Virus record (IMG/VR): IMGVR_UViG_3300043313_001602
Strand: one strand, 5' to 3'
Length of the DNA stretch: 15,741 nucleotides
Source: a virus
The number at the start of each line of letters is the position of its first letter. Positions within the stretch are counted from its first letter, which is position 1. A program made the position numbers and the translations under genes. This document shows, in pieces, positions 1-15,741 of this stretch. The notes beneath the pieces are model-generated. The model saw only the letters and a program-made list of their open reading frames with translations. It ran no database searches and was not told where the DNA came from.

Positions 1-69
1 ACCGGGTCCCGCCTCGCCCGCCGGGCACGGCGCCCCGCTCCCACGTCGAGGGCGTGGTGATCGGCGCCC
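1..69 (+). repeat. Terminal direct repeat, copy 1 (identical to 15673-15741); contains the 3' end of the HNH gene (1-60) and the start of the 54..254 ORF
   Basis: Base-by-base comparison: accgggtcccgcctcgcccgccgggcacggcgccccgctcccacgtcgagggcgtggtgatcggcgccc occurs at both window ends. Confidence 0.97.
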
Positions 70-10949: not shown

Positions 10950-11717
10950 GTGTCCCGCCTGACGGTGGCGCCGCTCGCCGAGTACGACCTCTCCGGGGGA
11001 CGGGTGATCATCACCTCGCCCTACGGCGACGGCCGCAATCACAAGGGCGTCGACTGGGGCACCACCGACGGCATCGAAATCGGCACCCCCCTGTTCGCGC
11101 CCGTCGACGGGCACATCTCCAACGCCGGCGACGACGGCCCCTACACCCCCGAGGGCGGCCACACCGCCGGGCGGTGGCTGTGGTTCGCCGGCGACAACGG
11201 CACCCGCTGGAAGATGTTTCACCTGAATCGGGTGACGGGCCCGGCCGGGGTCTGGTTGGCCGCCGGTACCCCCATCGCCGAGGTCGGCAACACCGGCACC
11301 CAGGCACCCCACCTCCACCTCGAAGAGCACCGCGAGGGCTCCTGGTCCTCGCCCGTCGACTTCACCGCCGACGCCTACGAGGTGATCGAGGCCGGGCGGT
11401 GGCCCGGCACCCGCCCCCCACCGGAGGAACCCGACATGACCGACGACGACCACAACAGGATCATGGCCAACGTCGGCGCCCTGCTCGACAACCGCATCGC
11501 CCAGTTCCTCACCGCGAGCCTGCTCTGGACCGACGGCGACCTCGCATTCGAGGTCGTCACCGACGGCGACGGCCACCGGGTCCGCCGCCGCCTCGCCCCC
11601 GGCGAGCTCGTCGCCCTCCGCACCGGCGCCGCCATCGCCGAACAGCCCGCCATCGACGTCACCCGCCTCGCCCAAGCCCAGGCCGACGCCGTGCGCGCCT
11701 GGCCGCTAGTCGACTGA
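10950..11717 (+). CDS. Endolysin, M23-family metallopeptidase with C-terminal extra domain
   Basis: HxxxD-like NHKGVDW and the HxH motif in GNTGTQAPHLHLE. 255 aa. The C-terminal ~95 aa follow a Pro-rich linker, and an in-frame ATG at 11436 is preceded by GGAGGA. Confidence 0.85.
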   Translation: MSRLTVAPLAEYDLSGGRVIITSPYGDGRNHKGVDWGTTDGIEIGTPLFAPVDGHISNAGDDGPYTPEGGHTAGRWLWFAGDNGTRWKMFHLNRVTGPAGVWLAAGTPIAEVGNTGTQAPHLHLEEHREGSWSSPVDFTADAYEVIEAGRWPGTRPPPEEPDMTDDDHNRIMANVGALLDNRIAQFLTASLLWTDGDLAFEVVTDGDGHRVRRRLAPGELVALRTGAAIAEQPAIDVTRLAQAQADAVRAWPLVD

Positions 11718-11999
11718 ATCGGGGAAGTCGACCGCCTCGGTCGGCCGCAACACCACCCGCTCGGCCCGCCCGTCCCCCGTCTCCGCCGCGTCCGACAGGA
11801 CGTTGTGCAGACCCAGGAAGAAGTCGTGCAGGTCATCCATGGCGCCGGCGAACAGTAGTTGCGACGGCCCGTAGGTGCCGCCTCGGACATCGACGTGGAA
11901 CCGGCGCCGGTCGGGGTCGTCGTCGATGGGCGGCACCTCATAGGCGTGAAGCGTGGTGACACCGCGGACTTGGACGGACGGCCGATCGACATAGGTCAT
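11706..11999 (-). CDS. Hypothetical protein (only minus-strand gene)
   Basis: 97 aa with strong GC3 bias on the minus strand. The ATG lies 6 nt downstream of a TAGGCT hexamer (leaderless-type arrangement). It is divergent from parA, and its 3' end overlaps the endolysin stop by 12 nt. Confidence 0.7.
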   Translation of the reverse strand: MTYVDRPSVQVRGVTTLHAYEVPPIDDDPDRRRFHVDVRGGTYGPSQLLFAGAMDDLHDFFLGLHNVLSDAAETGDGRAERVVLRPTEAVDFPDSVD

Positions 12000-12042
12000 A
12001 CCATCAGCCTATCAGCCCTCAGCCATCAGCTAGGCTGTTCGG
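12000..12042. promoter_or_regulatory. 43-bp divergent leaderless promoter region packed with (A)TCAGCC repeats (candidate partition site/operator)
   Basis: atcagcc at 12003-12009 and 12011-12017, tcagcc at 12019-12024, atcagc at 12025-12030, and inverted ggctg at 12033-12037. TAGGCT at 12031-12036 (+) lies 6 nt before ATG 12043. TAGGCT on the minus strand (12011-12006) lies 6 nt before the minus-strand ATG at 11999. Confidence 0.6.
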
Positions 12043-12753
12043 ATGACTACTGTTATCAGTGTTGCCCATGTCAAGGGCGGTGTCGGGAAGTCGACGACCG
12101 CCGTGCAGCTCGCCCTGCACGCCGGTGCCACCGGCCGCCGGACCATGCTTATCGACGCCGACCCGTCGCGCTCGACCCTGTCGTGGGCGACCCGGGCCGG
12201 GGACTGGCCGACCGAGGTGGTGCCCGTGGAGGGGTACTGGCGGGCCGACCTCGAACGAGCCGTGCCAGCCCTGGCCTATGACTGCGACCTCGCCGTCATC
12301 GACACGCCGCACGACCCGGCCGGCCGGCACCACGCCGGGGTGGTGATGATCTCCGCCATTGTCGCGGCCGACCTGGTGGTGGTGCCGACCTCGCCCGACG
12401 GTGCCGACCTCGACCGCATGGAGGACCTGCTGGCCGCGCTCGACGTCGGCCAGCTCGACCGCCAGCAACGTGGTCTCGGCCCCGTCGACTGGCTCGTGGC
12501 CCTCACCCGGGTCGACCTGCGTAGAAGGACAATCGCGGCCGAGGTCGTCGAGCTCATGGTGAACCGCGACCTGCCGGTCCTGCCGATCGCGGTGCCCTCC
12601 GCCCTGGCCGACGGGCACGCCACCTCGACGTGGGTTCCCGAGCGGGCCGCCGTCGAGGACGCATTCGGGACGTCCACCGTGCTCGACGAGTACGCCGGCC
12701 TAGCCACCGCCGTCCTCGCCCGGGCCCTCGGGACCACGGTGGCCCCGGCATGA
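12043..12753 (+). CDS. parA: ParA/Soj-family partition ATPase (small, type Ib-like)
   Basis: Deviant Walker A KGGVGKST at the N-terminus, then LIDADP and a Walker B-like AVIDTP. 236 aa with no N-terminal HTH domain. The downstream small RHH gene overlaps by ATGA. Confidence 0.85.
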   Translation: MTTVISVAHVKGGVGKSTTAVQLALHAGATGRRTMLIDADPSRSTLSWATRAGDWPTEVVPVEGYWRADLERAVPALAYDCDLAVIDTPHDPAGRHHAGVVMISAIVAADLVVVPTSPDGADLDRMEDLLAALDVGQLDRQQRGLGPVDWLVALTRVDLRRRTIAAEVVELMVNRDLPVLPIAVPSALADGHATSTWVPERAAVEDAFGTSTVLDEYAGLATAVLARALGTTVAPA

Positions 12754-13013
12754 GCCGCGACACGCAACGCCCGACGATCCCGGCCTCGACCCGCCCTGCC
12801 CCCGACCCCGTCCCGCGGCGACCCAAGCGCTTCACCATGGACCTGCCCCCGGACAATCACACGATGCTCCGGCTCTGGGCCCTCGACCGCCAGGTGCCGG
12901 CCTCGCTGCTCGTCATGACCCTGGTCGATCTGGCCATCAACGACCCGGCGATACGGGCCCGGGTCGAGCACATCGCCGCCGACCAGTGGGAGGCACGATC
13001 AGCCCGTCAGTAG
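12750..13013 (+). CDS. Ribbon-helix-helix (ParG/CopG-like) DNA-binding protein, probable centromere-binding partner
   Basis: Internal ATG 12750 of track ORF 12630..13013 (ATGA overlap with parA). 87 aa with a disordered basic N-terminus, then KRFTMDLPPDNHTMLRLWALDRQVPASLLVMTLVDL (beta strand plus two helices). Confidence 0.65.
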   Translation: MSRDTQRPTIPASTRPAPDPVPRRPKRFTMDLPPDNHTMLRLWALDRQVPASLLVMTLVDLAINDPAIRARVEHIAADQWEARSARQ

Positions 13014-13050
13014 TCAGTAGTCAGCCGTGATGATGGGCTGCATTCAGCCC
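12999..13050. repeat. Second TCAG(CC/TAG) repeat cluster with hairpin at the 3' end of the par operon
   Basis: atcagcc at 12999-13005; tcagtag, tcagtag and tcagccg at 7-bp spacing (13007, 13014, 13021). Hairpin gggctg-catt-cagccc at 13035-13050. Confidence 0.6.
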
Positions 13051-13422
13051 GCAAACCCCCTCGGGCGGGTGACGGTGGTGTCAGAAACGGGCTCCTAGTG
13101 GATGCTCTGCGCCCGGTCCACATACACCCGTCCGAGGGGGGAGTGAGCGCGTGAGAGCAAGGTTAGCGGGCCCTGGCCGCGCCTGCTTGGGGCCGGTTCG
13201 GGGTCGCGTCATAACCGGGATTATCGGCGGATCACCCACCCCGACCGTGCTGAGGGAACCCTGAAGGGCCCCGAGCCAGCAAGGTGATGTAACAACGACC
13301 TACCGTGTCAGGATGCACACGCGCAACGGCCCGGTGTCGAGAGGGAATGGTCATCCCTCGACCCCGGGCCGGTGCCAGAACAGTCCCTACAACCGACGCC
13401 AATCGAAAGCAGGTGACCTGAG

Positions 13423-13872
13423 GTGAACCCTAGCCTCGGCCGCGCCCATCTCCGCAACGTCGCGACCCCCGACCCGGCACCGCCGCCGCTCGACCTCACG
13501 GCTAAGCAACTCACCCTCGTCGAGGCGAACCACCCGACCGTGCAGGCCCGCCAGCGCGCCGTGGCCGACGCCGTCCTCGCCGGCCACTACCGAGGCCGCG
13601 ACGGCCGGGCCCACGCGTTCCAGGCGCGTCACCGCGAGGTCATGTCCTGGCTCTGCATGCTCGCCAACCGCGACGGCGAGGTCCGCCCCGAGGTCATGAC
13701 CGCGGGCCGCCTGGCCGACCGCCTCGGCCGGACGCACACCAACGTCTGCGCCGACCTGCGCGACCTCGAGACTGCCGGACTGCTGTGGCGCCGCGCGCTG
13801 CCAGCAACGCGGGGACCGCTGTACGTGTACTGGGTCCCCGGGATGATGGCTCCCGTCCGGGCCGCCGAGTGA
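13423..13872 (+). CDS. Winged-helix DNA-binding protein (candidate replication initiator or repressor)
   Basis: 149 aa with good GC3. wHTH-like segment TAGRLADRLGRTHTNVCADLRDLETAGLLWRR. The gene ends 15 nt before the three perfect 24-bp repeats, and a degenerate copy overlaps its stop codon. Confidence 0.7.
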   Translation: MNPSLGRAHLRNVATPDPAPPPLDLTAKQLTLVEANHPTVQARQRAVADAVLAGHYRGRDGRAHAFQARHREVMSWLCMLANRDGEVRPEVMTAGRLADRLGRTHTNVCADLRDLETAGLLWRRALPATRGPLYVYWVPGMMAPVRAAE

Positions 13873-13886
13873 TCCCCAGGGCCGTG

Positions 13887-13960
13887 CCCAGGGTGATGCT
13901 GGGGCATCACCCCAGGGTGATGCTGGGGCATCACCCCAGGGTGATGCTGGGGCATCACCC
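13887..13960. repeat. Three perfect tandem 24-bp repeats made of alternating inverted 9-mers (iteron or operator array)
   Basis: The unit cccagggtgatgctggggcatcac occurs at 13887, 13911 and 13935. GGGTGATGC and GCATCACCC alternate with 4-nt (tggg) and 2-nt (ca) spacers. A degenerate copy lies at 13869-13886. Confidence 0.95.
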
Positions 13961-14045
13961 CTATAGGGAGACCAAAGAAGAGACCACTACTGAGACAGGC
14001 CCCTGTAGTCGCGCGGTCCGCGCGACAGGCCCTGTGGATCAGACG

Positions 14046-14082
14046 TTGACGCCGTGCCCGATCGGGCAAATAGGCTTCAGGT
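14046..14082 (+). promoter_or_regulatory. Putative leaderless promoter for the 14083 operon
   Basis: TTGACG (14046-14051), a 19-nt spacer, TAGGCT (14071-14076), 6 nt, then GTG 14083. This is the same TAGGCT-N6-start geometry as the two par-region promoters. Confidence 0.55.
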
Positions 14083-14433
14083 GTGATCAGCCAACCGCCT
14101 CTCCTGCCGCCACCGGCCAAGCCGCTGGCCGCCGCTCGGGCGGCGGTGAGAAGGGCGCGAGAAAAGGCGCTGACAGCGGTGCCGACGCCGAGCTCGCTGA
14201 CACCACCGGGATCCGCTCCCCTGTCACACCCCCGCCCTACGGTGGGGGAGGTGCCCCGAGGTCGACCGGCCGCCCCCGTCCCACCGCATGGCACGCGCGC
14301 CCGGTACAACCACCGCACCGACCCGTGCCGATGCACCCGCTGCCGCGTAGCGAACACCCGGTACATCGCCGCCTACCGAACCCGGACCGCCCTCGACGAG
14401 CACCACGACCAGGCCGAGGTTCTCGCCCGATGA
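14083..14433 (+). CDS. Small protein with HGTxxxYxxxxxCRCxxC Cys motif (putative zinc-binding/DNA-binding regulator)
   Basis: The 116-aa C-terminus PPHGTRARYNHRTDPCRCTRCRVANTRYIAAYR matches a motif recurrent in actinophage and actinomycete-element DNA-binding proteins. ATGA overlap with the next gene. Confidence 0.6.
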   Translation: MISQPPLLPPPAKPLAAARAAVRRAREKALTAVPTPSSLTPPGSAPLSHPRPTVGEVPRGRPAAPVPPHGTRARYNHRTDPCRCTRCRVANTRYIAAYRTRTALDEHHDQAEVLAR

Positions 14434-14792
14434 CGAGCTCGCTCGACACCCGCCCGCAACGGCTCGACCTGAAGCTGTACGGCGGCGACGACACCGTGAT
14501 CCGGCTCACCGTCCTCGACTCGGCCGGCGCCCCGCTGGATCTCTCCGCGGGCGAGCTGCTCGCCCAGGTCCGTCCCAAGCCCGGCGACGACGAGCTCACG
14601 TGCACCCCTGTCCTCGACACCACCGAGGCCGCCCTCGGGGTCGTGTACCTGCTGTTCGCCGCCGCCTGCACCCGGGCACTGGCCGCCGGGAAAATCCACG
14701 CGTGGGACCTGCGCTACCGCGTCGCCGGGCTCGACGAACGGCTCTGTAGCGGCACGATCCACGCCCAACCCGAGGTCACGGTCGACCCATGA
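14430..14792 (+). CDS. Ig-like (BppU N-terminal-like) minor tail protein
   Basis: Internal ATG 14430 of track ORF 13785..14792. 120 aa with the pattern LKLYGGDDTVIRLTVLDSAGAPLDLSAGELLAQVRP...WDLRY...GTIHAQPEVT, typical of phage fibre/baseplate Ig-like domains. It is translationally coupled to the fibre gene. Confidence 0.55.
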   Translation: MTSSLDTRPQRLDLKLYGGDDTVIRLTVLDSAGAPLDLSAGELLAQVRPKPGDDELTCTPVLDTTEAALGVVYLLFAAACTRALAAGKIHAWDLRYRVAGLDERLCSGTIHAQPEVTVDP

Positions 14793-15487: not shown

Positions 15488-15732
15488 GACCGTACGACGA
15501 GCCCGAACACCGGGCCCTGTCGGCTCGGCTCAAGTCCGTCGAGGTGCAGTGCTGGCGGTGTCCCGCCCGGGCGAGCACCGTGGACCATGTGCCCCCGCTC
15601 GCCCGCCATCAGCACCGCCACGGCACCCGATGCTGCGAGCTGCGCCCCGCCTGCCCGGCGTGCAACTACTCGACCGGGTCCCGCCTCGCCCGCCGGGCAC
15701 GGCGCCCCGCTCCCACGTCGAGGGCGTGGTGA
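15484..15732 (+). CDS. HNH endonuclease (terminase-associated type)
   Basis: 82 aa. CWRC...DHVPPLARHQHRH...CPACN forms an HNH/zinc-finger pattern. It lies next to the terS/terL genes across the circular junction. Confidence 0.85.
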   Translation: MRPYDEPEHRALSARLKSVEVQCWRCPARASTVDHVPPLARHQHRHGTRCCELRPACPACNYSTGSRLARRARRPAPTSRAW

Positions 15733-15741
15733 TCGGCGCCC
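15673..15741 (+). repeat. Terminal direct repeat, copy 2 (identical to 1-69)
   Basis: Exact 69-nt identity with the window start. The offset of 15,672 bp gives the unit genome length. Confidence 0.97.

Follow-up and report, generated by a model that had tools for sequence, protein, structure and literature searches.

A tandem array of palindromes beside an orphan winged-helix gene as a candidate replication origin in a very small tailed phage

The viral record IMGVR_UViG_3300043313_001602 of IMG/VR, a stretch of 15,741 bp (the window), carries three identical 24-bp palindromic units at 13887-13961, directly behind a plus-strand gene for a 149-aa winged helix-turn-helix (wHTH) protein (13423-13872; GC content at third codon positions, GC3, 0.91). 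We propose that this array may form the initiator-binding part of a lambda-type replication origin with a minimal orphan initiator, a reading for and against which we find the case evenly balanced, while binding of the wHTH protein to the array is very probable. The first and last 69 bp of the window (1-69 and 15673-15741) have the same sequence, and the genome is therefore closed, with ~15,672 bp and 72% GC; as judged from the sequence it is that of a complete tailed phage. A first-pass annotation of the same DNA had likened this region to the origin of a theta plasmid. The element is no plain theta plasmid but a small tailed phage with partition genes, and we infer for this very small virus the option of a plasmid prophage. 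The comparisons below draw on about 15-16 distinct soil-metagenome contigs of ~14-15.65 kb with the same gene order, labelled L001 and so on.

The array starts 15 nt after the wHTH stop codon and is the top-scoring tandem repeat of the window in Tandem Repeats Finder (period 24, 3.1 copies, 100% matches, score 150). Its 24-bp units, CCCAGGGTGATGCTGGGGCATCAC, are mutually identical, and at lags of 15-40 the longest exact self-match runs over 51 nt compared with a maximum of 13 in 20 shuffles, which bears out the three exact repeats reported by the first-pass annotation. A 22-bp palindrome, GGGTGATGC-TGGG-GCATCACCC, recurs at 13891-13912, 13915-13936 and 13939-13960, giving six exact GGGTGATGC half-sites in alternating orientation at 13891(+), 13904(-), 13915(+), 13928(-), 13939(+) and 13952(-). 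No other exact copy exists in the genome, and such sites are absent both from the promoter-like region of the wHTH gene itself and from the remaining sequence. The alternation of 22-bp palindromes (4-nt spacer) with 20-bp palindromes (2-nt spacer) is as earlier described; the latter are a by-product of the junctions, because the 22-bp palindrome is repeated in tandem, and the relatives keep only the unit with the TGGG spacer and not the 20-bp palindromes as such. A further degenerate copy had been placed at the wHTH stop codon. The overlap is real, but the copy is weak (11/24 in register) and is better described as a degenerate half-site GAGTGATCC plus a 12-nt half-unit CCCAGGGCCGTG (9/12), which together occupy 13867-13886, across the stop codon and just after it; in most relatives this slot holds a full first palindrome. 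We rejected the reading of the array as a coding repeat (PRVMLGHH three times within the open reading frame 13785-14792), as that frame is non-coding there by GC3. Rfam and tRNA searches gave only chance matches of the array to miRNA-like hairpins and no Rfam family.

In essentially every relative found, a module lies directly after the same wHTH gene and keeps one order: palindromes, three GAGAC or GAAGAC repeats, the box GTAGTCGCGCGGTCC and TGTGGAyAA. The array is still present in two relatives whose wHTH proteins are only 33-40% identical. Thus, the comparison with relatives that the first-pass annotation had called for finds the array at the same place in all of them, with one to three repeats: usually three, two in L001 and one in L007 and L014. 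The palindromes have arms of 7-10 nt around the TGGG spacer and a period of 24-25 bp, and all copies within one genome are alike. The array abuts or overlaps the wHTH stop codon, the first palindrome starting in relatives 2-6 nt before the stop ends. L010 and L011 each have one unit with CCCA in place of TGGG as its spacer, an inversion which would be neutral for a symmetric dimer on double-stranded DNA and fits symmetric recognition.

The array recurs with symmetric, compensatory differences in 15 relatives, and comparison of the arms demonstrates that both always change together, the variants being TGATGC, TGGTGC, TGGTTC, AGGTGC, GGGTGC and TGGACC. In the dyad, 90% of the cells are paired and changes on both sides are seen at 4 of the 10 arm positions; none of 500 shuffles reached the covariation score, which collapses in slid controls. 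These data indicate selection for dyad symmetry. Each class of arms goes with a class of recognition helix in the wHTH protein (THTNVCADLRDL in the window), the helix classes being TNVCAD, QNVCRD, DNVNTD and (A/S)(N/G)VR(R/T)(D/E). A partial Mantel test controlling for the rest of the protein gave a helix-arm correlation of r = 0.55, with no value as high in 20,000 permutations. When the test is confined to the window and its 12 closer relatives (13 genomes), the correlation with the arms is r = 0.68 for helix 3 but 0.20 for the wing plus C-terminus and 0.11-0.13 for other segments; since the wing and C-terminus are encoded between helix 3 and the array, physical linkage by itself cannot account for this pattern. 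Helix position 6 pairs with one arm position as Arg-G, Asn-A and Cys-T. Two pairs of relatives illustrate the same rule: L004 and L010 share 56% identity in the rest of the protein, 92% in the helix, and identical arms, and L015 and L010 share 86% in the rest of the protein and 58% in the helix, and their arms differ. Because the arms change symmetrically and track the recognition helix, not the rest of the protein, the wHTH protein very probably binds the array, and the earlier view of the array as dimer binding sites of the adjacent protein gains support. A dimeric HTH protein on a dyad site, as suggested by fold, dyad selection and helix-site co-variation, is common to an origin and to an operator. 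Three of the arm classes occur together in the IMG sample 3300020009, in L009 (TGATGC, three copies), L014 (GGGTGC, one copy) and L017 (TGGTTC, three copies), a co-occurrence as would be expected if the classes avoided mutual incompatibility or immunity.

The array is followed on the plus strand by a low-GC patch at 13962-14001 (46-47% GC, 68% purine) holding three 12-nt direct repeats with a GAGAC core, GGGAGACCAAAG, AAGAGACCACTA and CTGAGACAGGCC, which we regard as a candidate DNA-unwinding element or as candidate binding sites for a second factor. A 37-nt patch of 46% GC lies here ~3.7 standard deviations below the mean stability of the genome, and is followed by an inverted repeat at 14008-14026. 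The 47% GC reported earlier for 13961-13994 is correct, but its rank as the lowest of the genome is not: it comes third to eighth by GC or stability, with lower patches at positions 357, 2070 and 15205. Among the relatives, three direct repeats with a period of 11-15 nt are found in all close ones, and in 12 of 13 loci the GAGAC patch is one of the five least stable 30-bp windows. The 12-mers are unrelated in sequence to the arms of the palindromes, nor do they follow the helix class of the wHTH protein. Their reading as DnaA-trios was dropped, as by eye no frame yields a run of trios. Directly 3' of the array, CTATAGGGAGACCA at 13963-13976 (CTATAGGGAGACCAC in L001, L004 and L009; 10517-10531 of L001) agrees at every base with the T7 phi10 promoter from position -5 to +9/+10, as checked against NC_001604; the likeness is probably a coincidence, because no single-subunit RNA polymerase is encoded.

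Beyond the patch lies the conserved box GTAGTCGCGCGGTCC (14005-14019), here part of a GC hairpin, GTCGCGCG-GTC-CGCGCGAC, with an exact 8-bp stem at 14008-14026. This stem and its flanking 11-12-nt direct repeats, ACAGGCCCCTGT and ACAGGCCCTGT, are exact as first noted, but the structure is not conserved: around half of the relatives (L005, L013, L015, L016, L019) have the 3' arm replaced while keeping the 5' arm with the box. A search of IMG/VR for GTAGTCGCGCGGTCC beside known replication genes returned family members and chance matches in unrelated genes only, and in this context the box is confined to the IMG/VR members of the family. Further on, at 14033-14041 on the minus strand, the 9-mer TGTGGATCA (reverse complement TGATCCACA) resembles the DnaA box TGTGGAYAA and is the sole match with at most one mismatch in the whole window. 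A match of that quality stands at the same place and in the same orientation in 10 of 15 genomes (the window and 14 relatives), a 22-fold enrichment. As a single 9-mer, TGATCCACA has one mismatch to TTATCCACA and two to the actinobacterial TTGTCCACA. Exact consensus boxes are found in L005 (TGTGGATAA, the high-affinity DnaA box of E. coli and B. subtilis) and L019 (TGTGGACAA, that of Streptomyces and Mycobacterium); such consensus boxes are listed in PMC4285127. The conserved order of palindromes, low-stability repeats and DnaA-like motif fits an origin better than an operator, as far as the sequences of the family can tell.

The 149-aa wHTH protein is a candidate origin-binding initiator. Its profile matches are weak and all below the Pfam cut-offs (MarR, Crp, CodY, HVO_A0114 and HTH_36, the last also matched by 3 of 10 members of its family). 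An AlphaFold2 model has a predicted local distance difference test (pLDDT) score of 80-93 in the core, and its Foldseek matches are generic (CodY, MarR, ArsR). We tried to separate an initiator from a regulator by sequence, profile and fold, and the two are inseparable by these means, all matches being generic wHTH. No match to Phage_rep_O, Rep_3, RepA WH1-WH2 or similar was obtained in Pfam, NCBIfam or PHROG, and no homology to gp17 of phage RRH1 was detected. The protein belongs to a very small orphan family: a search of 5.8 billion proteins gave 10 clusters, and one of 1.84 billion gave 11 representatives. None of 185,579 genomes representing bacterial and archaeal species yielded a match to the wHTH protein, hence no integrated or cultured copy has been found, and searches of cultured phages with the DNA and with the wHTH protein gave no matches.

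In order to account for these features, we propose the following mechanism. Dimers of the 149-aa wHTH protein would bind the three 22-bp palindromes at their 24-bp period, and the resulting nucleoprotein complex, possibly aided by cruciform extrusion, would destabilise the adjoining patch of GAGAC 12-mers. The DnaA-box-like site, and perhaps also the 116-aa product of the gene downstream (gp116), could then recruit the host replication machinery. The origin would serve the maintenance of a plasmid-like prophage, because ParA and a ribbon-helix-helix (RHH) protein are present and an integrase is absent, and possibly lytic replication also. In this mechanism each helix/site class of the relatives would represent a distinct replicon specificity, or incompatibility group. 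Searches of the genome with Pfam and PHROGs detected neither an integrase nor any polymerase, helicase, primase or Rep family, and the lack of any other detectable replication gene counts for the origin. The first-pass annotation had invoked the theta-origin layout of iterons, unwinding element and initiator gene; adjacency and order are as it stated, whereas direct-repeat iterons are not found, the sites being palindromic.

The known kind to which this arrangement belongs is a phage or plasmid origin with dyad-symmetric initiator sites beside an unwinding element. Lambda O has a small wHTH domain that binds as a dimer, with a specificity that differs among lambdoid phages. As read from NC_001416, orilambda consists of four 18-bp palindromic iterons spaced 20, 24 and 23 bp, then a purine-rich, AT-rich and easily melted stretch of ~40 bp, and then an inverted repeat. 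Both systems share palindromic initiator sites of 18-22 bp at a spacing of 20-24 bp, the melted stretch (as predicted here), an inverted repeat, and an initiator/site specificity that differs between relatives, here by comparison. However, the sites lie just outside the wHTH gene, overlapping its stop codon in relatives, and not mid-gene as in lambda; they number three (one or two in some relatives) instead of four; the wHTH protein ends at the array without the C-terminal domain of lambda O, and the genome lacks a gene for a P-like helicase loader; the module includes a DnaA-box-like motif and the host would be a high-GC actinobacterium; and half of the relatives do not keep the inverted repeat.

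A second likeness is found in Arthrobacter phage Decurro (L030, NC_028692; Cluster AN, 15.5 kb), whose 222-aa gp23 is annotated as "replication initiation O-like" and matches HTH_36 with E = 1.9e-8. Within gene 23, at 14409-14550, we observed a 23-nt unit in two identical copies with a spacing of 25 bp, each copy containing the 16-bp palindrome TACCCCCGGGGGGGTA; the pair is preceded by a 12-nt inverted repeat and followed by an AT-rich stretch containing AAACCATC twice and then by the part encoding a Cys-rich C-terminus; this lambda-like layout is unannotated in the record. Decurro is likewise a very small actinophage, its terminase is related and its genome plan is the same; in its gp23 gene the part for an N-terminal wHTH is followed directly by tandem palindromic units and an AT-rich stretch with short direct repeats, and the gene sits a few genes before an HNH endonuclease. 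In contrast with the window, its repeats lie inside one gene and not between two, and it is described as lytic and is without ParA; its origin function is by annotation only. The Cys-rich C-terminal part of gp23 finds a counterpart in gp116, a protein with a Cys motif that is here encoded beyond the module. As a tentative extension, which we hold to be possible and not more, the wHTH protein and gp116 could flank the origin as the two parts of a split O protein; together with ParA and RHH such a replicon would let the phage persist as a plasmid, with the helix/site classes as incompatibility groups.

Iteron-type theta replicons (P1 oriR/RepA, F and pSC101; pWTY27, pFP1 and pFP11) also place an initiator gene beside repeated sites, a melted region and a DnaA box, and the P1 replicon adjoins a par operon. 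They differ in that their iterons are direct repeats, to which two-domain Rep proteins of ~250-520 aa bind as monomers, as opposed to palindromes and a 149-aa single wHTH, and the window has no operator copy at the promoter of the protein itself. An actinobacterial precedent for a site of alternating complementary short repeats is the Streptomyces plasmid pWTY27, in which the footprint of RepA falls on an inverted-repeat "iteron" where complementary 7-8-mers alternate (PMC3583192). Extrachromosomal Cluster A mycobacteriophages are actinophages that have parABS in place of the integration cassette and live as plasmid prophages (Wetzel et al. 2020, PMC7157519). Their replication functions lie beside parABS and employ RepA or an RNA-based origin, for the most part the non-coding RNA (PMC7157519). 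The window shares with them the lack of an integrase, the par cassette and an expected tight link of replication to par; unlike it, they have genomes of ~50 kb, a RepA of 320-350 aa, no repeats found at their origins (PMC7157519) and a ParB of a type different from the RHH protein.

The partition genes lie upstream of the wHTH gene on the plus strand. parA (12043-12753) encodes a deviant Walker A motif, and its nearest homologues in cultured phages are those of Cluster A mycobacteriophages (32-33% identity); the following RHH gene (12750-13013, 87 aa) overlaps the parA stop codon (ATGA), and its homologue in L005 passes the Pfam RHH_1 threshold. Heptad-like repeats with a TCAG core flank the pair, with four copies of CCATCAG upstream of parA (12001-12030) and 2.7 copies of GTCAGTA at the end of the RHH gene (13006-13024). 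The relatives have their own heptad versions at the same two places, e.g. CAGTAG/CTACTG or TCAGGGTAC. These are probably the centromere and operator sites of the RHH protein, and the whole is probably a partition cassette with its own centromere. On the other side of parA, the lone minus-strand gene (11706-11999, 97 aa, no family matches) is divergent from it, and the 43-bp spacer between the two is filled by the heptad repeats. This gene is restricted to the window-type subgroup (L001, L007, L017, L022, L026), and its position corresponds to the integrase/repressor slot of small temperate Gordonia phages.

Between the RHH gene and the wHTH gene a non-coding region of 410 bp (13014-13422, plus strand) contains a long stem (~13062-13140) and a leader hairpin (13323-13375), together with the motif CATAACCGGGATTATCGGCGG and a -10-like TACCGT. 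Its conservation at the nucleotide level persists where the wHTH protein is only 33% identical, and the stem shows on the plus strand two compensatory pairs and several G-U changes. A near-universal motif of the region is CATAA-N5-6-TTAT(C/G)GGCGG. In L005, L011, L013, L015 and L019, however, the 5' 250 bp are swapped for a minus-strand open reading frame of 86 aa. From these comparisons the region could be a structured RNA, an element controlling wHTH expression, or an RNA-based origin.

Downstream of the module a promoter-like element (14046-14082, plus strand) has a -35 hexamer TTGACG at 14046-14051 and a -10 hexamer TAGGCT at 14071-14076. The spacer between them holds a perfect 12-bp palindrome, GCCCGATCGGGC, at 14056-14067. 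The element is kept in L001, L004, L007, L009, L017 and L022, across differing specificity classes of the wHTH protein, and in the same six relatives GCCCGATCGGGC is conserved with at most one change through four such classes. A consensus scan of 11600-14600 for promoters and terminators called nothing. The promoter proposed in the first-pass annotation thus has its hexamers, conserved in at least six relatives, but is not called by the strict sigma-70 scan. The promoter probably drives a leaderless transcript from the GTG at 14083. Its palindrome must, as the sequence comparison would have it, be an operator position for another, conserved regulator; the wHTH protein is not needed as repressor of this promoter, because GCCCGATCGGGC stays constant while wHTH specificity changes.

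That transcript would begin with the gene for gp116 (14083-14433, plus strand, 116 aa), which has a flat GC3 and an invariant motif, HGTRARYN-x5-PCRC-x2-C-x2-AN-x2-Y-x3-YR. The gene is present in 15 of the 15 loci examined, always downstream of the module, and its homologues are found in this element family only; it is a possible partner of the wHTH protein. Weak matches were obtained to actinophage PHROGs annotated as HNH or HTH, and the confidence of its AlphaFold2 model (predicted template modelling score, pTM, 0.29) was too low for a fold search. One homologue occurs in a metagenome-assembled genome assigned to Ornithinibacter, the sole hint at a host. In some relatives cargo genes lie just downstream of the module: in L005 (10456-11136) a DNA methylase-like gene with its GTG start inside the DnaA-box-like 9-mer, and in L007 (11045-11755) an AAA_33 kinase-like gene.

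Several observations weigh against the array being an origin. The wHTH protein is small, with a generic fold nearest the dimeric transcription factors CodY, MarR and ArsR, and palindromes are also typical of operators. Against lambda O (residues 1-158) hhalign gave a probability of 0.3%, i.e. no detectable homology, and against Decurro gp23 a marginal result (E = 0.015, probability 3%). A helicase loader, a primase and a Rep domain are all missing from the genome. L007 and L014 have just one palindrome each, and the low-stability patch is not the genome minimum in GC or stability. The DnaA-box assignment is one of resemblance only; the motif is missing from the two most distant relatives, and in window-type genomes it adjoins the -35 hexamer of the promoter. 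The non-coding region 13014-13422 could hold the true origin. Finally, the cumulative GC skew around the circle, a check proposed by the first-pass annotation, falls monotonically and gives no origin signal; it is uninformative here, as nearly all genes lie on one strand.

The reading of the array as a triple operator or roadblock, also raised in the first-pass annotation, seems to us possible but rather doubtful. The wHTH protein would then be an immunity or early regulator that blocks read-through from the par-wHTH unit into the largely structural operon, or acts at a distance on the promoter at 14046. Palindromic sites, a dimeric-type fold nearest MarR, CodY and ArsR, and the place of the array between two transcription units and upstream of a conserved promoter all suit such a role, for which a single palindrome would be enough in L007 and L014; the diversification of helix and site also fits heteroimmunity. 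However, with 133-181 bp between the site centres and the putative start at 14083, the array is too far upstream for ordinary repression or for class I or II activation, and it ends 86 bp before the -35 hexamer instead of overlapping or closely flanking it. Furthermore, no sites exist at the promoter of the wHTH gene itself or elsewhere, and the palindrome proper to the 14046 promoter, GCCCGATCGGGC, is unchanged as wHTH specificity changes. An operator leaves unexplained why the 12-mers, the low-stability patch, the box and the DnaA-like motif travel with the array even where the promoter is missing. Distance and the invariance of GCCCGATCGGGC thus weaken this alternative, and a roadblock to read-through retains its force above all in L005, where the next gene starts inside the module without a recognisable promoter and would therefore be transcribed through the array. 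Less probable still is a control of copy number or incompatibility, in which the true origin, possibly RNA-primed, lies in 13014-13422 and the array titrates or handcuffs the wHTH protein. The P1 iteron array incA, just downstream of repA, provides a model for it. The persistence of 13014-13422 at 33% wHTH identity, with compensatory and G-U changes in its stems, speaks for it as well, and Cluster A prophages without RepA replicate from a non-coding, RNA-expressing region of ~600 bp beside parABS (PMC7157519). Yet the 5' part of the region is not universal while the array module is, the region has no wHTH sites and so offers no second array for handcuffing, and the DnaA-like motif and low-stability repeats adjoin the array and not this region.

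A function as nucleic acid structure, in which tandem hairpins end or stabilise the wHTH transcript or a cruciform acts without a specific binder, we consider improbable. The RNA of the region folds with -100 kcal/mol (z = -6.3), compensatory changes keep the stems complementary and the array stands directly 3' of a stop codon; actinobacterial terminators, moreover, are often without a U-tract. Nevertheless, no terminator-like site was called in 11600-14600, no T-run follows any hairpin and no Rfam family matched, and termination has no need of three identical copies at a fixed 24-bp period. The loop TGGG is conserved yet invertible to CCCA, the arm mismatches tolerated in L013 and L024 are G-A and A-A and not wobble pairs, and the arms track helix residues with canonical amino-acid-base pairings, which a pure structure would not need. 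We find it at least as hard to credit the array as a partition centromere (parS) bound by a centromere-binding protein that works with ParA. ParA is encoded 1.1 kb upstream, the centromeres of small ParA systems are short arrays of direct or inverted repeats, and in Miko-type phages repA is closely followed by an additional parS. But ParA already has a translationally coupled RHH partner (the ATGA overlap), the parA-RHH pair is flanked in each relative by its own heptads as the expected RHH sites, and the wHTH gene is ~400 bp from the par genes with its own promoter-like leader; what the array tracks is the wHTH protein. The identity of the copies, as after recent slippage, and their varying number (1-3) among relatives would suit a neutral, functionless tandem duplication, to which we give next to no credence: position and period are the same where the flanking proteins are only 33-60% identical, and the arms change on both sides at once, in parallel with the recognition helix. 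By these comparative data a neutral duplication is effectively refuted.

As for the remainder of the genome, a GC3 analysis placed nearly all genes on the plus strand, and Pfam and PHROGs identified a small terminase, portal, M23 peptidase, collagen-like tail fibre, HNH endonuclease and ParA ATPase. The large terminase has as nearest cultured phages the tiny actinophages RRH1, GRU3, SallySpecial and Arthrobacter Cluster AN (33-35% identity). Many contigs of relatives appear to begin near window position 1, upstream of the small terminase gene and after the HNH gene, and the shared starts would fit fixed termini (cos or a short terminal repeat) rather than an assembly overlap only. The packaging site was considered for the array and set aside, as the HNH and terminase genes lie near window position 1, where those contigs appear to start.

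By the searches run, the new elements of this system appear to be an orphan 149-aa initiator with its sites outside the gene, possibly split with a second small protein, a DnaA-box-like site, and the combination of a partition cassette with a tailed-phage genome of 15.7 kb. The origin, if confirmed, would support a plasmid-prophage lifestyle at a genome size which is, to our knowledge, far below that of known phage-plasmids; if the split, two-part replicon envisaged above is true, this uncultured soil family would comprise the smallest of them, with at least four helix/site classes as natural incompatibility groups. Whatever the array does, the family is also a natural experiment on DNA recognition by winged helices, in which single helix residues change with single base pairs in both half-sites. 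Vector choices are limited in high-GC Actinobacteria, and a self-contained replicon of ~700 bp (one small protein plus a 200-bp site) would become available for them, with several orthogonal specificity variants already at hand in nature. Furthermore, such an origin would explain how replication starts in the smallest tailed actinophages without a polymerase, a helicase or a recognisable Rep.

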